In this document: positions 4,218 through 20,225 of the stretch, piece by piece
How the letters are laid out: the number at the start of each line of letters is the position of its first letter
Numbering within the stretch: the first letter of the stretch is position 1
Source of the DNA: Treponema sp.
GTDB taxonomy: Bacteria > Spirochaetota > Spirochaetia > Treponematales > Breznakiellaceae
Assembly (NCBI GenBank): GCA_031265825.1
Contig: JAISCD010000019.1
Location: forward strand, 1 to 20,225
Length of the DNA stretch: 20,225 bases
Direction of reading: 5' to 3'
Notes under the pieces: model-generated
The model's database searches: none
What the model saw: the letters and a program-made list of their open reading frames with translations, nothing else
Told to the model about the DNA's origin: nothing
Made by a program: the position numbers and the translations under genes

Positions 4218-4311
4218 TCGTGTTGACATTTCTCCTCAATTTTGTTAAAAGATTTTGAAAAAGAACTTGATAAAAAATACGGCAAGGATATTATATTTAT
4301 GGAGGAATAAC

Positions 4312-4782
4312 ATGGAAAATTTAGCATATAAAATTATAACCCCAAGGTTTATAGGACGTACAAAATATTCCAAATTGGTTCTCATAATGTCTTTTGTCTT
4401 GGTAGGGGCTTTTATTGGAATAATATATTCCTCCAAAAAGCCATCGGTTGATATTGATAATGGGGTTTTAACCATAAAATCATTGTTTTATGGAAAAAGT
4501 ATACCCATTGGGGAAATAAATGTAAACGGCGTCCAGCAGTTGAACTTAAATATTGATAAAGACTATAACATAAAAATCAGAACAAATGGAATAGGATTGC
4601 CGAATTATCATGTTGGTTGGATGCGATTAAATAATGGAAATAAGGCATTGGCATATTTAATGGATAAAACCAATGTAGTTTTAATTCCAACAAAAGACTA
4701 TGATGTTTTAATCAGTACAAAAGATTTTGACAGAATAAAAGAAGCGTTAAATGAAGGGATAAAAGTTGGTAAAGAGAAGTAA
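4312..4782 (+). CDS. membrane-anchored bacterial PH-domain (bPH_2/YdbT-like) protein. Hypothetical. Strongly AT-rich
   Basis: A GGAGG RBS precedes the ATG at 4312 (the track ORF starts earlier, at 4255). The N-terminus has a TM helix (LVLIMSFVLVGAFIGIIY) and is followed by a beta-rich ~120-aa domain reminiscent of bacterial PH domains. Its GC content is far below that of flanking housekeeping genes. Confidence 0.5.
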   Translation: MENLAYKIITPRFIGRTKYSKLVLIMSFVLVGAFIGIIYSSKKPSVDIDNGVLTIKSLFYGKSIPIGEINVNGVQQLNLNIDKDYNIKIRTNGIGLPNYHVGWMRLNNGNKALAYLMDKTNVVLIPTKDYDVLISTKDFDRIKEALNEGIKVGKEK

Positions 4783-4907
4783 ATGTCCGTCCTCATTTAT
4801 CTCCCCATAAATAATTAAATTGTTAAACAATGTCTCTGGGCGTTGTCAATCAACTGTATCAAATAAATATTCCAGAACTATTTTATTTTTTCCCCGCATT
4901 GCTATAC

Positions 4908-4960
4908 GCCAGACCCCGTTTTCTCAAGCGGGTTGAATGATTGCCGTCTCCGCATTTCCC
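4908..4960 (-). repeat. ~53-bp ghost copy of an internal segment of the endonuclease gene (homolog of 8503-8556), fused in-frame to array A
   Basis: tacgccagacccc(g)ttttctcaagcggRttgaatgattgccgtcYccgcatttcccc is present at both loci. It encodes GEMRGRQSFNPLEK in the endonuclease and GEMRRRQSFNPLEK at the C-terminus of the array ORF. A 1-nt indel then shifts the frame to a stop. Confidence 0.8.
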
Positions 4961-5376
4961 CGTCCACTCTCAAAGACCCGACATCCACTCTCAGAGACCC
5001 GACGTCCTCTCTCAAAGACCCGACTTCCACTCTCAGAGACCCGACTTCCACTCTTAAAGAGCCGACTTCCACTCTTAAAGAGCCGATTTCCTCTCTTTTA
5101 GACCCGACGTCCACTCTCAGAGAGCCGACACCCACTCTCAAAGACCCGACACCCACTCTCAAAGAGCCGATGTCCACTCTCAAAGACCCGACGTCCACTC
5201 TCAGAGAGCCGATTTCCACTCTCAGAGACCCGGCGTCCACTCTCAGAGACCCGACTTCCTCTCTCAGAGACCCGATGTCCACTCTCAAAGACCCGACATC
5301 CACTCTTTGAGAGCCGACATCCACTCTCAAAGAGCCGACGTCCTCTCTCAAAGAGCCGAAATCCACTCTCAGAGAG
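4961..5376. repeat. tandem array A: about 20 imperfect units of 21 bp (consensus tccactctcaRagaSccgacNt)
   Basis: Direct inspection shows strict 21-bp periodicity, with variation confined to a few positions. Each unit carries the palindrome (c)tctcAgaga(g), and many units also contain gacgtc. Both strands are open: + gives DPTSTLR heptads and - gives VGSLRVD heptads. Confidence 0.95.
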
Positions 5377-5384
5377 TAAAATAT

Positions 5385-5430
5385 CGCCGTGCTTTAACGT
5401 TATGCTGTTTTCTGTAGTCTTAATTTTGGG
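5385..5430 (-). repeat. ~46-bp ghost copy of the M1 3'-end / M2 5'-region junction (homolog of 6197-6242)
   Basis: atcgccgtgctttaRcgttatgYtgttttcYgtagtYttaatttt is present at both loci. In the real copy it encodes the last 11 aa of methyltransferase 1, and in another frame KIKTTENNITLKHGD, the N-terminal motif of methyltransferase 2. Confidence 0.8.
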
Positions 5431-5492
5431 CGCCACTTGACGCCTCTTTCTATTGCCGTCAAGGACGGCGGGCGAGACTGAGACTGTTACTT

Positions 5493-6152
5493 CTATAATA
5501 ATGACAATTCCATTGTCGTTTTATTGATCCTATCTTTTGCAATATTAAAATAATTATCATCAATTTCTATCCCAATAAATTTCCTTGCCAATTTCTTTGC
5601 CACTACTCCTGTTGTTCCACTACCCATAAATGGGTCTAAAATTGTATCTCCAATTCTACTACCCAATAATATAATACGCTTTAATAATGTCTCTGGCTTT
5701 TCCGTTGGGTGTTCCGTCAAATGTCTTTCCGCTGGTATTTCCCAAAGATTTTTCATCTGCTTTCCACCGTTTAATTCTTTTGCGGTATCATAATCAAAGA
5801 AATAGTTTTTTGTTTTGCTTGCAAGCCATATTAATTCAGTTGAAGGCGCAAGGCGATTCTTTGACAATAAAGGAGTAGCGTTCCTTTTAAACCATATAAT
5901 ATCGTTAATAATCCAATAATCAAGTTCTTTTAATAATACGCCAACGGAAGGGTGATTATGCAAGGTCCCAGACACCCATAATGTACCAGTATCCGATAAA
6001 ATCCTTTTACATTCTGTAAGCCACGCCCGATTAAAAGCATGAATATCATCAATAACATCCCATTTCCCTTTATCGCAGGCTACAGGTTTACCATTTTTAA
6101 CCGTAAGAAAACCTGCCCCTGACAAATTATAGGGGGGATCAGCAAAAATCAT
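5493..6152 (-). CDS. beta-class DNA amino-methyltransferase (N6-adenine or N4-cytosine), second methyltransferase of the R-M cassette. The N-terminus is anomalous
   Basis: Motif IV DPPYN lies at the N-terminus and motif I DPFMGSGTTG near the C-terminus, the beta permutation of the N6_N4_Mtase family. The gene is AT-rich. The conserved N-terminal segment is encoded upstream of the only ATG, which suggests an indel in the A-run at 6189-6193. Confidence 0.8.
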   Translation of the reverse strand: MIFADPPYNLSGAGFLTVKNGKPVACDKGKWDVIDDIHAFNRAWLTECKRILSDTGTLWVSGTLHNHPSVGVLLKELDYWIINDIIWFKRNATPLLSKNRLAPSTELIWLASKTKNYFFDYDTAKELNGGKQMKNLWEIPAERHLTEHPTEKPETLLKRIILLGSRIGDTILDPFMGSGTTGVVAKKLARKFIGIEIDDNYFNIAKDRINKTTMELSLL

Positions 6153-6211
6153 ATCTATACTTTTATCGGGAATATCTTTAATAAGAGTAAAAACATCGCC
6201 GTGCTTTAGCG

Positions 6212-7072
6212 TTATGTTGTTTTCCGTAGTTTTAATTTTAGACGCTCCTTTGCAACAAGAATATACTGTTCGTTTTTTTCAATGCCAATCCAATGGCGGT
6301 TTAATTCTTTCGCAACTTTCCCTGTTGTCCCTGTTCCGAAAAATGGATCCAGCACTATATCATTTTCATTCGACGATGCTTTAATAATTAACTCTAATAG
6401 TTTTTCCGGTTTTTGCGTCGGATGAACCGCACGCCCATTTGTTCCCTTAATGCGTTCTTTTCCCTGAACAATAGGTATTTCGATAAAATCAAAAAAATCA
6501 CGCATTTGCTTGCTATCACCATCTTTTGTCTTATGTGGGTTAAATTCTTTAACCTCGTTGTAATTAAAAATCCAATTTTTGCCTTTAACAAACCAGCACA
6601 CAAATTCCGTAGAATGGGTAAAAGTTCGTTTTGTAATATTTGGCATAGCATTAGTTTTATACCATGTTAAAATATTATTGAGTTTGAAGCCTACCTTTTT
6701 CCCTTCAATAAGAATTTCGCCGATATTATGTTGAGTACATGAAATATACAAACTGCCATTTGGCAAAAGAATCTTATGGCAAGCCTTCAACCAAGTTGCC
6801 GTGAACGTTACATAATCGAGATAATTAAAAGTATCCCAATCCTCATTCATTTTGTAATATGCACCACCAGTTTTGTTGTTTTTCAAATCAAGCGGCTTAC
6901 CGGATAAATTATAAGGCGGGTCGGCAAACACAAGATTTATTGAGTTTTCTTGTATTTGGGTTTCGAGTATTTGTACACAATCGCCTTGTATAATTTGATT
7001 AAGTGGTAATTTATGCGACAAGGGATATACCCCATTTGTTAATGATAGTCGGAATATTTGCCAACCAATCAT
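6212..7072 (-). CDS. beta-class DNA amino-methyltransferase (N6-adenine or N4-cytosine), first methyltransferase of the R-M cassette
   Basis: N-terminus IIQGDCVQILE...SINLVFADPPYNL (motif IV) and C-terminal VLDPFFGTGTTGKVA (motif I). The ATG at 7072 overlaps the endonuclease 3' end by 62 bp. An in-frame TTG near 7022 would reduce that overlap to 8 bp. Confidence 0.85.
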   Translation of the reverse strand: MIGWQIFRLSLTNGVYPLSHKLPLNQIIQGDCVQILETQIQENSINLVFADPPYNLSGKPLDLKNNKTGGAYYKMNEDWDTFNYLDYVTFTATWLKACHKILLPNGSLYISCTQHNIGEILIEGKKVGFKLNNILTWYKTNAMPNITKRTFTHSTEFVCWFVKGKNWIFNYNEVKEFNPHKTKDGDSKQMRDFFDFIEIPIVQGKERIKGTNGRAVHPTQKPEKLLELIIKASSNENDIVLDPFFGTGTTGKVAKELNRHWIGIEKNEQYILVAKERLKLKLRKTT

Positions 7073-8822
7073 CGGATTTTGTGAGTTCCTTCGATGATAA
7101 AACTATCGATTCAAACAATTCTTGTATCTTTTTATGCGATAGAAAATAGTCTTTGTTTTGTTTCTTTGCATCGAATAAATACTGTAATATTTCAATAAAC
7201 TGCTGAATAGTGATAGGAACGATGTTTTGTTTTTGTCCCTCATATTCATATTTTACGGAAAACCAAAAGGTGTTTCTGGTATCACGGTGGATTTTAGGAG
7301 CGACAAAAAGGCAATATGATTGTTTTTCATTATGCATCGCTTCAAAGTCTCTAAAATGCCGCATCACAGGCTGTCCTTCGTTAAACCATTGCGAACGGCT
7401 GGTTAATAATGTTACTTCACAGATTGAATTAAATGCTTGATAAAAACATTCAATGTCTGGTTTATTTGCCGGCGCGGTAAAGGTTGGCACATTGTCATCG
7501 CCTACAGGATAATTAGGATGAATTTCCAGCGCATCATTTAGGGCGTGTAAGCCGCTGGTAATAATTCGTTCCAATTCAACGGGCTTTTTACCAGCGAGTT
7601 TATGAATATTCTTTAAGTTAGTTATACAACTCTTTATATTTTCCAGTAATTGTAATTCCGCATGAACGCTTGCATCTGATAATTTGCGTCGATAGGAACG
7701 CAAATTTTCAATAGTCTTTTTTAGTGTAGTAGCATTATCATCTTTAGGTTTTATCTGCGGCATTTTGGGAAGGCTAATGCCTTTTGCTTTCATTATGTAC
7801 TCGGTTGTTTCAATGTCGGCGACTAATAATTTAATAACTTCCTGTAACTTCGTTTTATTTTCCCATGGCAATTCTGGCTGTGTAGCATCTCCTAAATACG
7901 TTGAGTATTCTGCTTTTAACGCGAATGTTTTTGCCGATGCGTTATCTGTTTCGATAATTGAATCAATCTCTATTTTTCGTCGCGGCTCTAGATCAATATA
8001 ATAATCATTTCCACGCAGATAAAAAAACCGAGTAAGGTGGAAGTTGCGTATTACATTATCCGCATAGTCTTTTGCGTTCCCCCATGACTCGTATTCGGAG
8101 AAATACTTATAAAAATATTCTTCCGCAAACTTTTCTATGCTTTCAGCAATTTTTACCTTTTGATAATCATTGCGGAATTTTAATATCTTTTCTGCCGTCT
8201 CTTCAATGTTTACATAGCTTGATAATGTTGTAAAGAACAAAGCGAATTCTATTTTTGATACGCCTTTTTCTTTTATACCTTGTCCAGCGCAAAGCGTATT
8301 TACTTTTTTAATTAAATGAAATGTAGCAATAAGTGGTTTAATATTGTAACCATCTTCTGCGGAATATTTATTCAGGTCAGGGTTGGGATATTGCCATTTA
8401 AGGAAACTACGAAAAAAAATATCGCCTAAATCGTAATTTTCGGATAAAAAAGCCTGTCCAAATGTGGTAACTTTTATTTTCTTTTCCGTATCAATATACG
8501 CCAGACCCATTTTCTCAAGCGGATTGAATGATTGCCGTCCCCGCATTTCCCCACCGCCTTTATAGTTTTTAGCGTTCAGTATTTCTTCCGCTTGTTCGTA
8601 GGTAAATGTATCGGAATGAAGCCATTCAAAGTGTTTTTTAGTTAATGTTTTTTCAAATTCGGGAATATTTATTCCGTATATTTTTCTCTGAAGCAGTAAT
8701 ATTTGGTAGCATTTCTGAGTTTCATCATTCCAAACTTCCCCCTCCAATTCCTTAAAAACCTTCAAGAAGGTACGTATCCGCTCGGGGTTTCTAACAGTTG
8801 TTGATATAGACCAAAGTCTCAT
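7011..8822 (-). CDS. putative type IIS restriction endonuclease, AlwI / N.BstNBI / PleI / MlyI-like (603 aa)
   Basis: A large ORF sits immediately upstream of, and co-oriented with, two strand-specific beta-class methyltransferases. That is the typical layout of a type IIS R-M system. Its size matches AlwI-family enzymes (~560-610 aa). Segments LKWQYP, PDIECFYQAFNSICEVT, QPVMRHF and YCLFVAPKI resemble AlwI-family (RE_AlwI) landmarks as I recall them. This was not verified by a search. A GAGGA RBS is present. Confidence 0.6.
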   Translation of the reverse strand: MRLWSISTTVRNPERIRTFLKVFKELEGEVWNDETQKCYQILLLQRKIYGINIPEFEKTLTKKHFEWLHSDTFTYEQAEEILNAKNYKGGGEMRGRQSFNPLEKMGLAYIDTEKKIKVTTFGQAFLSENYDLGDIFFRSFLKWQYPNPDLNKYSAEDGYNIKPLIATFHLIKKVNTLCAGQGIKEKGVSKIEFALFFTTLSSYVNIEETAEKILKFRNDYQKVKIAESIEKFAEEYFYKYFSEYESWGNAKDYADNVIRNFHLTRFFYLRGNDYYIDLEPRRKIEIDSIIETDNASAKTFALKAEYSTYLGDATQPELPWENKTKLQEVIKLLVADIETTEYIMKAKGISLPKMPQIKPKDDNATTLKKTIENLRSYRRKLSDASVHAELQLLENIKSCITNLKNIHKLAGKKPVELERIITSGLHALNDALEIHPNYPVGDDNVPTFTAPANKPDIECFYQAFNSICEVTLLTSRSQWFNEGQPVMRHFRDFEAMHNEKQSYCLFVAPKIHRDTRNTFWFSVKYEYEGQKQNIVPITIQQFIEILQYLFDAKKQNKDYFLSHKKIQELFESIVLSSKELTKSDDWLANIPTIINKWGISLVA

Positions 8823-8931
8823 ATATTCCTCATTATTATCATAAAGTTTTTATTTGTCCTTTATAATTTTCCCTTCAATTCATCAATTTCACTAATTAGT
8901 AAAGCAAAAACATTCTTATTTAATGAGTATC

Positions 8932-9245
8932 TTAATTCTCAGAGAGCCAACATCCACTCTCAGAGAGCCGATGTCCACTCTCAGAGACCCGTCATCCACT
9001 CTCAGAGACCCGATTTCCACTCTCAAAGAGCCGACATCCATTCTCAAAGAGCCGACGTCCACTCTCAGAGAGCCGATTTCCACTCTCAGAGAGCCGACTT
9101 CCACTCTCAAAGACCCGACGTCCTCTCTCAGAGACCCGACGTCCTCTCTTTTAGTCCCGACGTCCACTCTCAAAGAACCGACATCCACTCTCAGAGAGCC
9201 GACATCCACTCTCGGAGACCCGACGTCCACTCTCAAAGAGCCGAC
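8932..9245. repeat. tandem array B: about 15 units of the same 21-bp repeat (consensus tccactctcagagagccgacRt), in direct orientation to array A
   Basis: Direct inspection. The core palindrome ctctcAgagag (5-1-5) is cleaner here than in array A. On the minus strand the array lies 94 bp upstream of the endonuclease start codon. Confidence 0.95.
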
Positions 9246-9286
9246 GTCGGGTCTTTGAAAGTGAGTGGATACTCTCTGAGTATCCG
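9226..9286. repeat. terminal inverted repeat unit and hairpin pair closing array B
   Basis: The last unit is followed by its own near-exact reverse complement (ctcaaagagccgac|gtcgggtctttgaaag). A perfect 8-3-8 palindrome ggatactc-tct-gagtatcc follows, and it embeds the repeat core in inverted form. Confidence 0.7.
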
Positions 9287-9311
9287 ATACCGCGTTCTCG
9301 ATGGGTGCAGG

Positions 9312-9794
9312 TTAGGTTTCCGTCTCAACCTCGCTGGGTGTCCGCTTGCCGCCGGGGAAGCGGGTTCTCAGTTCCTCGTAGACCGCCTTTGCGCCGGGTA
9401 TATCCTGTTCCGCCGCCATTTTGACAGACTTGTAAAACACGAGGGCGGCTTGATAGGCTTCGCTTCCAGCTATCATTTCCGTGTCTTCTATGTTCTCATC
9501 AAGTTGCCGAATACTGTTGGCAAGCGTCCAAAGCCCGTGGGCGTCGTCAAAATCCACGCCGAAAGCGATTATATCAAGGTAGGTTGGGACAAAATTCGGA
9601 TTCTTCTTGGCAAAATCGTAGGATTTCTCCACAAAACTTATGGTTTTCTCACCCATTTTAGGCAATTCGTGCCGTTCAGTCGGGGTCAGAGCCATCACAT
9701 AGGGGGCTAAAAGCGTCTTGACCTCGTCAATCTTGGTCTGCGCCTGCGTCAAAACATCCTGCGGTATGGCTTGGACGTGTTTATTATCCTTCAT
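9312..9794 (-). CDS. hypothetical protein (160 aa)
   Basis: Clean ORF with a GAGGAG RBS (ttgactttGAGGAGattATG). Its GC content matches the housekeeping genes. No recognisable family. Confidence 0.6.
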   Translation of the reverse strand: MKDNKHVQAIPQDVLTQAQTKIDEVKTLLAPYVMALTPTERHELPKMGEKTISFVEKSYDFAKKNPNFVPTYLDIIAFGVDFDDAHGLWTLANSIRQLDENIEDTEMIAGSEAYQAALVFYKSVKMAAEQDIPGAKAVYEELRTRFPGGKRTPSEVETET

Positions 9795-10067: not shown

Positions 10068-10574
10068 ATGAAAAATTATTTTAGGTTTACGCTGTTGGTT
10101 CTCGTTGTTTTCTTTTCATTTCTGTCTTGTGAAGGTCTAACGATTGCTACGGTTGATTTTGATTATAATAAATTCAAAATTGAAAGATCGGCTTGGGAAA
10201 ATTCAAGCCCGCTTAATTATCAATATAAGTTATCAAATAGTGGCGGGGGAGAATATGTTCCCATTAACACTTTAATTATTGTTGAAAATGGACAATTTAA
10301 AGAACAAACTCCTCTTTCGGAATATGGAGAAGCAGGGGAAAATTATCAAACAATACATAAAGTTTACGAAACAATAGAAGATATTTATCAAAGATATAAT
10401 AATACCCAGCAATCTAAAAAAGATTTTTATTTAACAAAAATAAAAATAGAATATGATTCAAATCATGTTCCTCTAAAAACAGAGTATTATTATTACATTC
10501 CTCCATATTTAATGGATATGAGCACGTATTGGCGCTACGAAATAGAAAATTATAAAACAAATAGTAATGAGTAA
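10068..10574 (+). CDS. putative lipoprotein (168 aa), AT-rich
   Basis: GAAGGAG RBS. Signal peptide MKNYFRFTLLVLVVFFSFLSC ends in a lipobox-like FLSC with Cys at +1. The mature part is Tyr/Asn-rich and low in GC. No homolog recognised. Confidence 0.6.
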   Translation: MKNYFRFTLLVLVVFFSFLSCEGLTIATVDFDYNKFKIERSAWENSSPLNYQYKLSNSGGGEYVPINTLIIVENGQFKEQTPLSEYGEAGENYQTIHKVYETIEDIYQRYNNTQQSKKDFYLTKIKIEYDSNHVPLKTEYYYYIPPYLMDMSTYWRYEIENYKTNSNE

Positions 10575-10589
10575 TGAGGAAAGATGGGC

Positions 10590-11068
10590 GGGTGCCGCGG
10601 GTGTCAGAGACGTGAGGTGGCGGAGTAGGCGATGTCTGCGAGTGTCAGACGTGCGAGTTTTTTGGGGGTGGCGGAAGACCCGCGCAAGCGGGTCTGGAGA
10701 CAGGGGGGCGCACCGCAAGGGCGTCTGTGTGCCGTCCTCCGTTTAAGGAAAGACGCGCCCCCCTCATACAGAGAACAAATAGTAAAGAGCAGAGAGCAAT
10801 TAGTAAAGAGCAAAGGAAGAAGAGCCGTCCGAGGTGCAAACTGGGCGGCGCTTCGAGTGTCAGACATAAACAACGAATAGGCTCCGCTTGCTTGCAAGCG
10901 CACCCTTCGGGTGTTTTAAAGCGTCCTGCCTCGCCGTGCGTGTGGATTACCGAACATCGCGGAGGTTCCGCTTGCAAGGCAAGCGTAACCGTCCTGTCGG
11001 GGTCAGCGGCACACCCTTTCAAACAATAACCCGTGTGAAGTATTTAAACACCCGTTGGGTGTTTTTTT
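10590..11068 (+). repeat. GC-rich structured repeat element, copy L (inverted partner of 13152-13625)
   Basis: It aligns as a reverse complement with 13152-13625 over ~450 bp. It contains GTGTCAGAGAC and GTGTCAGAC palindromes, several stable hairpins, and an internal AGTAAAGAGC micro-repeat block. It ends in a perfect rho-independent terminator. The last ~20 codons of mazG are read from it on the opposite strand. Confidence 0.85.
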
Positions 11069-11915: not shown

Positions 11916-13151
11916 ATGAATACAGCATTAGAAAACCTGAGAGCCCGAGGATTTTTTCGGCAATGTACAGACGCGGAGCGGTTGTCCGCGCTCATGGACG
12001 AGGGTCCTGTTACGTTTTATGTGGGGTGCGACCCTACGGGATCGAGTCTTCACATCGGACACATGGTACCGTTTTTTGCGTTTCGGCACTTGCGCGCCGC
12101 GGGTCATCGTGGAATAGCCCTGATCGGCGGCGGTACGTCCCGCATCGGGGATCCTTCTGGCAAAACGTCCATGCGTCAAATGCTTGATTACGAGAAATTG
12201 GACGAAAACGCCGCTTCTATTACAAGGCAATTGGATGCTTTCTTGAACTTTGACGGACAAAATGCCTTCACCGCCAACAATAAGGATTGGCTCGCGGAAC
12301 TTAATTACATTGATTTCCTGCGCGATATAGGGAGGCATTTCTCTGTCAATCGTATGCTTTCCTTCGAGGCTTATCGTCTCCGTATGGAAACCGGGCTTTC
12401 GTTTCTTGAATTCAACTATCAGTTATTGCAGAGTTACGATTTCCTGCAATTATTCCGTAAACACGGGTGTCGTCTTCAGATAGGCGGGGATGATCAGTGG
12501 GGCAATATTGTCGCGGGTTCGGACTTGATTCGGCGGATTGACGGCGCGGAGGTGTTTGGTCTCACGTTCCCGCTTATCACCACAGCGGACGGCAAGAAGA
12601 TGGGCAAGACCGAGAAGGGCGCGCTCTTTCTTGACCCGTCTATCACTTCGCCTTATGACTTCTTCCAATATTGGCGGAATGTTCAGGACGCGGATATTAG
12701 GCGTTTCCTGCTCATGTTCACGTTTCTCTCTGTCGAAGAATGTACGGCTCTTACTGCGGAGGGCACGAGTCCCAACAACGCGAAGGAAAGGCTTGCCTGG
12801 GAGGTAACGGCTCTCATACACGGGAGGGATGCGGCGAATCGCGCGCTTGCCGGCGCACGCGCGAGTTTCGGCGGTTCGGGTGGCGATAAGTCCGCGGTAC
12901 CGACCGTCTCTCTTGCTATGGATAAGTTCGACGCGGGTTATAACATCGTCGATTTGTTCACAGATGCGGGGCTTTGTTCCACGAAGAGCGAGGCGCGGCG
13001 TCTTGTCCAGCAGGGCGGCGCATTTGTGAGCTGTGACGACGAGGGGTTCGTAGCCATAACGGATCCGAAAGCCGTGGTGGGTTTTTCAGAAGAATTGGTT
13101 CTTCGTGCAGGCAAGAAGCGCACCCTTCGGCTGCACCCGAAGGCTGTTTAA
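11916..13151 (+). CDS. tyrS: tyrosine--tRNA ligase
   Basis: Class I motifs HIGH (SLHIGHMVPF) and KMSKS (KKMGKTE) are present. A C-terminal S4-like domain ends the protein. It is divergent from mazG with a 64-bp intergenic gap, too short for a T-box leader. Confidence 0.95.
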   Translation: MNTALENLRARGFFRQCTDAERLSALMDEGPVTFYVGCDPTGSSLHIGHMVPFFAFRHLRAAGHRGIALIGGGTSRIGDPSGKTSMRQMLDYEKLDENAASITRQLDAFLNFDGQNAFTANNKDWLAELNYIDFLRDIGRHFSVNRMLSFEAYRLRMETGLSFLEFNYQLLQSYDFLQLFRKHGCRLQIGGDDQWGNIVAGSDLIRRIDGAEVFGLTFPLITTADGKKMGKTEKGALFLDPSITSPYDFFQYWRNVQDADIRRFLLMFTFLSVEECTALTAEGTSPNNAKERLAWEVTALIHGRDAANRALAGARASFGGSGGDKSAVPTVSLAMDKFDAGYNIVDLFTDAGLCSTKSEARRLVQQGGAFVSCDDEGFVAITDPKAVVGFSEELVLRAGKKRTLRLHPKAV

Positions 13152-13625
13152 CGACTTCACACGGGTTGTTGTACGAAAGGCGGACCCGCTGTCCCCGCAC
13201 CCTTCGGGTGTTGGACAACTTCACAATGGTTGTTGTTTGAAAGGTTGACCCGCTGACCCCGTCTTGACGGTTACGCTTGTCTTGCAAGCGGAACCTGCTC
13301 GTTGTTTATGTCTGACACCCGAAGCACACCCGAAGCGCCGCCCGGCTTGCACCTCGGACGGCTCTTCTTCCTTTGCTCATTGCTCATTACTAACTGCTAA
13401 TTGCTCTCTCCCCTCTGCTAACTGCTAACTATTCATTACTCACTAGTATGAGGGGGGCGCATCTTTCCCTAAACGTGATTGGCACACAGACGCCCTTGCG
13501 GTGCGCCCCCCTGTCTCCAGACCGCCCCCGCGTGGCGGGTTTAAAAGGGGCGGTCTTCCGCCACCCCCCAAAACTTGCACCTCTGACACCATCGCCTCCG
13601 CCCGCCTGCCGGTGCCTACCCGCCG
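13152..13625 (-). repeat. GC-rich structured repeat element, copy R (inverted partner of 10590-11068)
   Basis: Reverse-complement alignment with copy L. It starts exactly at the tyrS stop. It contains a tandem internal duplication of a ~47-bp module (13154-13200 and 13215-13262), an expanded TTAGCAG-type micro-repeat block, and a hairpin whose stem sequence differs from L while staying complementary. Confidence 0.85.
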
Positions 13626-13676: not shown

Positions 13677-13890
13677 TGTCAGGCATCGCCCCGAAACTCC
13701 GCCCTGTGCCTGCGGTGTCAGACATCGCCTTACTCCACCGCCCGGCGTGGTGTCAGTCATTATACTTTTATGTCTGCGTACCGGGGGTGCGGCGGCGTGC
13801 GTGCGGTGTCAGACATGGGCTATTCAGCGTGGTGTCAGACACTATACCTGCGTATCGGGACATAGGCTTATTACGGCTAGGTGTCAGACA
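13677..13890 (+). repeat. row of six direct GGTGTCAGACAY palindromic motifs spaced at 30-57 bp
   Basis: Motif starts at 13677, 13716, 13750, 13807, 13837 and 13881, all in the same orientation. The core GTGTC-A-GACAC is a 5-1-5 palindrome. Confidence 0.85.
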
Positions 13891-14172
13891 TCTTGTCTTA
13901 ACTCTGCGCCATCTTGTCTTAACTCTGCGCCATCTTGTCTCAACTCTGCACCATCTTGTCTCAACTCCGCGCCATCTTGTCTCAACTCCGCTCCATCTTG
14001 TCTTAACTCTGCTCCATCTTGTCTTAACTCTGCTCCATCTTGTCTCAACTCTGCGGCATCTTGTCTCAACTCTACGCCATCTTGTCTCAACTCTGTCGTA
14101 TCTTGTCTTAACTCTGCGCCATCTTGTCTCAACTCTGCGCCATCTTGTCTCAACTCTATGGCATCTTGTCTC
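13889..14172. repeat. tandem array C: about 13.5 units of a different 21-bp repeat (catcttgtctYaactctgcgc)
   Basis: Direct inspection. The array is bracketed on both sides by GTCAGACAT motifs. The left boundary forms a 5-3-5 palindrome agaca-tct-tgtct. Confidence 0.95.
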
Positions 14173-14189
14173 TGTCAGACATCGGGACT

Positions 14190-14282
14190 ATGTTTGGGGA
14201 GGGGGTAGCGTAAGACCGATCCTTTTAAACCAGCTACGCGGGGGACGAGCTGGAGACAGGGGGCGCACCACAAGGATATGAG
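14190..14282 (+). repeat. third, partial copy of the element core (same orientation as copy L)
   Basis: aagaccgatccttttaaaccagctacgcgggggacgagctggagacagggggcgcaccacaagg matches the L/R core (ggcggaagacc...ctggagacaggggggcgcaccgcaagg). Confidence 0.7.
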
Positions 14283-19790: not shown

Positions 19791-20225
19791 AGGCGTTGTG
19801 GTGCCAGACACCCGCGAAAGTGCCAGACACCAGCGCCTAGCCCCCGTGCCCTGACCCCGCCCGCCCGTCTTTCCTTTGCTAACTGCTAACTGCTAATTGC
19901 TAACTGCTCTCTGAAAAAAGGCGTTATGGTGCCCGCGAGGGCGTTGCGGTGTCTGACACCAGCGCCTAGCCACCGTGTCCTGCCCCCGCCTGCCCGTCTT
20001 TCCTTTGCTACCTGCTACCTGCTAACCACTAACTGCTACCTGCTCTCTGCTAATTGCTAACTGCTCTCTGCTAACTGCTCTCTGAAAAAAGGCGTTATGG
20101 TGCCAGACACCAGCGCCTAGCCCCCGTGTCCTGCCCCCGCCCGCCCGTCTTTCCGTTGCTAACTGCTCTCAGCTAACAGCTCTCAGAAAAAAGGCGTTGT
20201 GGGGACAGAAACCCGCGCCCAGCCG
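19791..20225 (+). repeat. composite tandem repeats of 123, 171 and 102 bp, with a fourth truncated by the window end. Each holds a variable block of CTGCTAA/CTGCTAC heptamers
   Basis: Units start at ~19791, 19914, 20085 and 20187. The module order is aaaaaaggcgttRtggtgcc-agacacc-agcgcctagcccccgtgYcctgMccccgccYgcccgtctttcc-(ttgcta + heptamer x3-10)-ctctctg. The first modules are related to 13575-13680 of element R. Confidence 0.9.

Follow-up and report, generated by a model that had tools for sequence, protein, structure and literature searches.

The complete 20,225-nt contig analysed here, referred to as the window, comes from a metagenome-assembled genome (MAG) of Treponema sp. and carries an endonuclease gene (R) and two DNA methyltransferase genes (M1 and M2) beside the gene for a conserved 160-aa protein, p160 (NCBI locus tag LBK25_01295). 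The locus is best explained, with reasonable though far from full confidence, as an apparently intact, horizontally mobile type IIS restriction-modification (R-M) cassette seated in the cargo slot that follows p160 and its 21-bp repeat array, with the presence of two such arrays representing the scar of a duplication or re-insertion. The original prediction for this DNA described three co-oriented AT-rich genes flanked on either side by a direct array of the same 21-bp unit, and both Tandem Repeats Finder (TRF) and the GC profile bear this out: the genes lie on the minus strand, at a GC content of 0.33–0.37 over 5500–8800 compared with 0.45–0.58 in most flanking genes. The features of the locus are as follows.

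4881–4961, minus strand: R remnant of about 80 bp, homologous to R codons ~90–117 at 8473–8552
4961–5375: left array, TRF period 21, 19.8 copies, 84% matches
5378–5438, minus strand: M1/M2 remnant of 61 bp, 85% identical to the M1-stop/M2-start junction at 6190–6250
5493–6152, minus strand: M2, second beta-class methyltransferase, 219 aa from the ATG at 6152
6212–7072, minus strand: M1, beta-class N6_N4 DNA methyltransferase of 286 aa, counted from its first ATG
7011–8822, minus strand: R, predicted type IIS endonuclease of the AlwI/MlyI/N.BspD6I family, 603 aa, apparently intact
8823–8936, minus strand: region upstream of R, with a promoter-like site (8860–8832) and a ribosome-binding site
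8937–9248: right array, TRF period 21, 14.9 copies, directly downstream of p160
9249–9311, minus strand: spacer from the p160 stop to the right array, about two inverted units plus a hairpin with an 8-bp stem, GGATACTC-AGA-GAGTATCC
9312–9794, minus strand: p160, conserved 160-aa acidic all-helical protein, with the right array after its stop

The right array is the resident array of p160 and not an end of the cassette, because arrays follow p160 in many loci that lack the cassette. A scan with the exact unit pattern over one genome per species (185,579 species) returned only two relevant matches, L007 (a Treponema MAG) and L010 (a Spirochaetia bacterium), both with related 21-bp units directly after a p160 homologue; beyond the array, the start of the same R gene is found in L007 but not in L010. 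Metagenome contigs searched with p160 as anchor yielded 48 loci, none with R, M1, M2, or the other neighbours seen in the window. Tandem arrays with a period of 21, 42, 63, or 84 that start 0–100 nt past the p160 stop occur in 37 of 51 p160 loci. In a non-redundant census of 55 p160 loci (384 kb), where an array was counted if it was at least 84 nt long and directly after p160, 33 carry one, and comparable arrays elsewhere in those 384 kb number only four, two of them in the window. Autocorrelation detects a weaker 21/42/84 periodicity in L025, L043, L046, L076, and L080, which include Bacteroidota loci.

Among close relatives, the position homologous to the right array is occupied in L007, L010, L073, and L081. 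The order p160-array-R-M1 recurs in L081, and the cassette stands at the p160 slot in L007, L081, and L073 as well, in the last as a remnant. These closest relatives are mostly metagenome contigs and MAGs labelled Treponema, Spirochaetia, and Hollandina, which we take to be termite-gut lineages. Exact-protein look-ups with R, MazG, and M2 retrieved no further contigs; a single contig of the same strain is known, L001, and it breaks off within the left array.

The cassette genes fall into the families originally proposed for them, an AlwI/N.BstNBI-like endonuclease and two beta-class methyltransferases. The 603-aa R matches the Pfam profile RE_AlwI (PF09491) at 1.8e-82 (278 bits, cutoff 23.1) over positions 2–441 of 441, the PADLOC model REase_II 'Type II nicking endonuclease' over its full length at 1e-123, and N.BspD6I in the PDB at 5.8e-41. 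The alignment with N.BspD6I, a protein of 604 aa, spans both the recognition and the catalytic parts, and the catalytic stretch KPDIE...CEVT of R aligns to QPDME...GEVT, with PD...EVT kept, a likeness at the level of sequence only. Many close homologues of R exist, and its existing NCBI annotation reads 'AlwI family type II restriction endonuclease'. M1 and M2 both cover nearly the full Pfam N6_N4_Mtase profile (M1 at 2.7e-60, positions 1–221 of 221; M2 at 1.7e-53). The best PDB relative of M1 is CcrM (2.2e-50), and its match to the NCBIfam CcrM model reaches 2.2e-67, which is under the cutoff of that model. Upstream of R, conservation among the cassettes is confined to about 30 nt before the ATG.

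The called start of M2, the ATG at 6152, encodes the Met inside its SIDMIFADPPY motif. Upstream of it the frame stays open to about 6240, and these ~27 codons (KTTENNITLKHGDVFTLIKDIPDKSID) encode the expected N-terminal methyltransferase motif; this stretch contains no ATG, GTG, or TTG, and it holds an ATT 8 nt after a perfect AAGGAG, from which we infer that M2 may start non-canonically at the ATT. Among the homologous cassettes, the M2 of L082 is a 266-aa protein with an upstream start, and the M2 calls in L083 and L084 are 219 aa. The degraded copy at 5378–5438 has a GTG at the position that would correspond to the upstream start of M2.

MlyI, PleI, and AlwI are homodimeric type IIS enzymes, whereas N.BstNBI and N.BspD6I are the large subunits of heterodimeric ones. 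The small subunit of BstNBI and BspD6I is encoded in an adjacent open reading frame (ORF) and is needed for double-strand cleavage (PMC3017599). In contrast, R, M1, and M2 take up the span 5493–8822 and leave no small-subunit ORF of ~190 aa, and the sole match to the small subunit in the PDB (2p14) is the C-terminal domain of R itself. The absence of such an ORF suggests that R is either a dimerising enzyme like MlyI and AlwI or a lone nickase. We assign the cassette, as predicted from its genes, to the AlwI/MlyI/N.BstNBI family as a new member that has its two CcrM-like methyltransferases in separate genes and lacks a small subunit. It shares with other RE_AlwI systems the full-length endonuclease domain and the adjacent beta-class adenine methyltransferases, and it differs in its two separate methyltransferase genes from the p160 locus L075, where a fused 562-aa N6_N4_Mtase is encoded. 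M1 would methylate adenine on one strand of an asymmetric site and M2 on the other, and R would cut or nick DNA left unmodified. The likeness of both methyltransferases to CcrM/GANTC enzymes makes a GAGTC-like recognition site probable. Site avoidance lends this assignment no help: in the window GAGTC occurs 22 times and GGATC 17 times, both mildly under a crude expectation of ~36, which does not discriminate between them.

In line with the original prediction, none of the window's large ORFs has a Pfam match to an integrase or transposase family, and the unit in this respect is not an island with a recombinase in or beside it. Low GC is not unique to the cassette, since two further low-GC genes flank the locus, one for a bPH_5 membrane protein on one side (4255–4782, GC ~0.30) and one for a DUF6174-like lipoprotein on the opposite side (10068–10574, GC ~0.28).

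The proposed mobility of the cassette is upheld by its distribution, as the R-M1-M2 unit is found in at least three unrelated contexts, with R at 74–80% amino acid identity. In L082, a Spirochaetaceae MAG, R-M1-M2 lies between an RlmL-like gene and LepA, without p160 and without an array. It is flanked there by direct repeats of ~120 bp (6529–6649 and 10101–10221, 93–99% identical) that correspond to the RlmL-LepA intergenic sequence and include the last bases of the upstream gene, so that L082 looks like an insertion accompanied by a long target duplication. In L083 and L084, the unit lies between Peptidase_A24 and isochorismatase genes, with no flanking repeats. R-M units flanked by long direct repeats, including insertions with long target duplications, were described by Furuta et al. 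(PMC2853133). The window resembles this class in its R and M genes, in the size of the insert (~3.6 kb, well within 20 kb), in the lack of any other mobility gene, and in direct repeats far longer than 30 bp. It differs in that the 'target' is itself a 300–400-bp tandem array belonging to a conserved neighbour gene, in that the distal copy lies among pieces of a further copy of the cassette, and in that no empty site was recovered in which both flanks are conserved.

The two arrays belong to one repeat family. A degenerate 18-mer of the unit (CCACTCTCARAGASCCGA, up to two mismatches) has 31 plus-strand matches, all within the two arrays, where shuffles give an expectation of 0. They run in the same orientation, vary at the same places in the unit, share one rare variant unit, and have 19 25-mers and a longest exact stretch of 41 bp in common. 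The original prediction placed the cassette exactly between them; it does lie between them, but the fit is loose, with 114 bp from the right array to the start of R and 117 bp from M2 to the left array, the latter containing the 61-bp M1/M2 remnant.

This remnant and the R remnant show that the left array is not a clean boundary, as it is flanked by pieces of the cassette on both sides. The 61-bp remnant adjoins the left array on the cassette side and is joined to it at the microhomology TTTTACTCT. Directly outside the left array sits the R remnant, which is 94% identical to R over 47 nt and 73% thereafter, reads ...GEMRRRQSFNPLEKTG in frame 1, and is joined to the array at GTGG...GGGGAAATG. 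In the alignments, cassette homology on both sides ends exactly at the left array. Such exact stops, together with the microhomology joins, place the left array inside the wreck of a diverged second cassette copy, and the two-array arrangement is accordingly best read as a scar and not as a device carried by the cassette.

A cassette-less state is represented by L073 and L074 (identical), whose p160 is 79% identical to that of the window. Around the decay scar at 10550–10855 of L073 follow, in order, p160, a 3.5-unit array of the window family, R codons 1–~34, the last ~30 codons of M2, and the tyrosyl-tRNA synthetase gene (TyrRS); the R::M2 fusion is out of frame, and TyrRS is on the opposite strand. 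As read from its sequence, this is a cassette-less allele produced by an internal R::M2 deletion, with a single array left. In the window, TyrRS is instead found across p160 from the array, so the p160 module or its surroundings were rearranged. A further 21-bp array is present at 9–160 of L073, 10 kb from p160.

How the cassette came to lie between two arrays has several candidate explanations. The arrays were originally taken for the ends of the cassette and for its mobility or instability device, with recombination between them excising or transferring the system. They are indeed direct and of one family, with the exact sequence in common noted above, and neither an integrase nor a transposase is present. 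The window array also folds far better as a single strand than shuffled sequences do (z = −11.7), which fits hairpin or cruciform potential and hence fragility, and which could stall replication. However, arrays follow p160 in 33 loci given as lacking this cassette, the cassette goes without arrays in L082–L084, its fragments lie on both sides of the left array, and the cassette-less L073 arose by deletion within it. An array-borne device is thus very improbable, and that part of the original prediction is not supported. Removal of the cassette by array-array recombination is feasible given the 41-bp stretch, but it was not observed, and the loss in L073 took another route. Another candidate is a single clean insertion downstream of p160, with the whole array duplicated as target and the gene fragments as unrelated later debris; it has a precedent within the same cassette family (L082), conforms to a described class that includes type IIS examples (PMC2853133), and agrees with the single-array state of L010 and L073, loci that share only the p160 flank with the window. 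We nevertheless consider it unlikely, as the fragments at the left array are homologous to the cassette yet diverged (85–94%), which a simple target duplication does not predict, the two arrays are not colinear, and an empty site whose distal flank is conserved was looked for and not found.

The favoured explanation, an insertion into the p160 cargo slot followed by duplication or re-insertion, is offered in the following form. The cassette would occupy the variable cargo slot that follows the conserved module of p160 and a 21-bp-period array, and the left array would be a second copy of the resident array, lodged between the M1-end/M2-start fragment and the R fragment. Together with these fragments it would form the junction of a further, degraded array-plus-cassette copy, which may have come from tandem duplication or from re-insertion at the array, with later illegitimate deletions at microhomologies. 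Several results weigh against this account. The order of units in the left and right arrays is not colinear beyond shuffles (491/2000), so that a recent duplication of the array is not demonstrated and was rejected as a candidate. L073 has no second array after its M2 remnant, and the group therefore did not inherit the duplication from its ancestor. A true empty site that retains both conserved flanks was not found. The fragment order, intact M2, M1/M2 remnant, array, R remnant, calls for two or more additional partial copies or else for several deletions, and no single simple event explains it. Finally, the copy number of the unit in the Treponema MAG is a count within the 20,225-nt window only.

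Beyond the cassette, p160 belongs to a very large family, which forms 482 clusters when grouped at 90% identity and has 3580 representatives when grouped at 50% (E up to 1e-3). Its named members come from Treponema, Spirochaetia, Hollandina, Paludibacter, Prevotellaceae, other Bacteroidales, and one MAG labelled Planctomycetaceae, and all are annotated as hypothetical. The protein shows no recognisable nucleic-acid-binding fold and no match to a known structure. Upstream, the p160 gene is preceded by a promoter-like box and an AAGGAG, both conserved. A phage origin was considered for p160 and rejected, with no relatives in IMG/VR, no BFVD fold match, and no PHROG match, and with L025 as the only prophage-like locus. 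In two Bacteroidota loci, L076 and L080, a strong intrinsic terminator stands between p160 and the array, which implies that at these loci the p160 mRNA does not simply run on into the array. L039 departs from the usual layout, with an inverted 21-bp array (264–520) located 33 bp upstream of a p160 gene that lacks a downstream array.

The arrays behind p160 keep their period and not their sequence. Units differ wholly between lineages (for example, GAATTTGGGTCTTTTAGAGTC, GAAATTCCTACCCCAAAGGTG, GGAGTTCAGAACTCCGAATTC, and TAGAAATATTTCATGTTTAAA), and the period of 21 bp, equal to two helical turns, is kept. Symmetry was judged against column-permuted controls: about 20 of 30 arrays are more self-complementary than these, and the dyad symmetry of the right array was reached by 2 of 200 controls. 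By eye, the consensus units have two dyad axes ~10.5 bp apart, and changes between them preserve the palindrome, as in GACGTC to GAATTC. A coding function was considered for the arrays, since one of their frames in the window, reading (D/E)VGSLRV, stays open, continues the frame of p160 beyond the p160 stop codon, and has ~50% synonymous unit differences. This was rejected, as the units have only ~6 variable positions and other loci lack a consistent open frame, frame relation, or synonymous excess. The bias of G.T versus A.C mismatches, examined to separate an RNA hairpin from a DNA palindrome, tracks strand composition, flips between arrays, and was uninformative.

The cargo that follows the p160 array is variable and often relates to DNA modification or defence, as seen in the following listing of loci, which is not a measure of enrichment against background.

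L025, 2277–9125: p160, degenerate array, Dcm, Vsr, and a 169-aa ORF, between GpA-type large terminase and lambda-family portal genes
L042: YafQ toxin
L043, 10471–13909: Dcm and HATPase_c_3
L046, 3717–7832: 978-aa Eco57I/N6_Mtase enzyme and a 227-aa ORF
L050: ResIII, Eco57I, and MmeI_Mtase
L051: IS1595 transposase
L064: Mrr_cat/M78 and KAP NTPase
L066: HsdS
L067: DndC-, DndD-, and DndE-like proteins
L075: fused 562-aa N6_N4_Mtase, with integrase fragments ~3.4 kb beyond
L076: DUF559

The related loci L043 and L046 have p160 and the flanking genes in common and differ in cargo, which looks like allelic replacement at the slot. The arrangement in L025 resembles a moron in a prophage. In L048, L069, and L080, the cargo is housekeeping or unrelated, or lies on the opposite strand.

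Several known systems resemble the p160-array module in part. Hot spots of defence or immigration control, such as the hsd/mrr region of E. coli and the hot spots published for defence islands, likewise combine a conserved flanking gene with variable restriction and defence cargo. The p160 boundary differs from these in carrying an array of conserved period and non-conserved sequence, and the surroundings of p160 themselves vary, lying in L025 between phage terminase and portal genes. ParR-parC and ToxI also place an array beside a small gene, with a unit that differs by lineage within a kept architecture, and the 21-bp period of two helical turns is like that of phased binding sites, as in iteron and centromere arrays. 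In contrast to ParR, p160 is acidic, without a ribbon-helix-helix or helix-turn-helix fold and without a partner ATPase or Rep protein, which sets the module apart from iteron and centromere systems. Its units measure 21 nt and not 34–45 nt, and p160 has no nuclease homology. Unlike in ToxIN, the array is downstream of p160, with a terminator between them in L076 and L080, an arrangement that does not correspond to a type III toxin-antitoxin system, and PADLOC returned no toxin-antitoxin match. The units run head-to-tail with no unique spacers between them, unlike those of a CRISPR array, and the arrays have no match in Rfam (E up to 1). The module therefore matches none of type III toxin-antitoxin systems, iterons or centromeres, and CRISPR, and literature searches on 21-bp arrays in Treponema or beside R-M systems turned up nothing relevant.

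These properties allow two wider proposals. One is that p160, array, and cargo form a single functional unit, in which p160 or its array would regulate, insulate, or recruit restriction and other defence genes and the array beside R would act as a control or landing element. The modification, restriction, or defence cargo at L025, L043, L046, L050, L064, L066, L067, L075, and L076, the shared flanks with different cargo in L043 and L046, and the two-helical-turn period that is kept while units change by compensatory, palindrome-preserving substitutions are in its favour. It is rather doubtful all the same, given an acidic p160 without a recognisable nucleic-acid-binding fold or known-structure match, the strong terminator that separates p160 from the array in Bacteroidota loci, cargo that at some loci (L048, L069, L080) is housekeeping or lies on the opposite strand, and a frequency of defence genes beside p160 that comes from a listing and not from a comparison with background. 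The other, which we put forward tentatively as a possibility, is that p160 and a dyad-symmetric array of 21-bp period, whose period and symmetry compensatory changes would preserve as the unit sequence turns over, make up an undescribed module, present in more than one phylum, that marks and perhaps creates or controls a slot for the exchange of R-M and other defence genes, the duplicated array of the window being one of its products.

In terms of significance, the cassette adds little, being one more R-M system of the AlwI family and already so named, and most of what was found for it is ordinary. The unexpected result is the module of a gene plus a phased array, found beside defence cargo in two phyla. 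Through this locus the large and uncharacterised p160 family comes into view, with a phased dyad-symmetric array and often near defence genes, in Spirochaetes and Bacteroidota. It also contributes to a natural series of R-M arrival, duplication, and decay, from the target duplication of L082 through the duplicated array of the window to the deletion scar of L073. If it were true that the array or p160 promotes or controls turnover of the slot, this would offer a new handle on the formation of defence islands without an integrase.

The window contains other repeats in addition to the two arrays. A third 21-bp array at 13889–14172 (13.5 copies, unit CATCTTGTCTCAACTCTGCGC) is unrelated to them in sequence, is not dyad-symmetric, and has no p160 adjoining it. 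It is bracketed by 44-nt inverted repeats at 13525–13568 and 14201–14244, and a 277-aa ORF that overlaps it consists of low-complexity RHLVSTL repeats and is probably spurious. MazG and TyrRS are bracketed by an inverted repeat of ~370 bp (10691–11061 and 13134–13523), 80–100% complementary with a perfect core of 43 nt, which includes tracts of heptamers and may be the basis of an inversion. An element of 100–170 bp, composed of a (TGCTAAC)n heptamer tract followed by GAAAAAAGGCGTTRTGG, is present in three tandem-like copies at 19820–20225 (also 13317–13444), and the contig ends inside this element.

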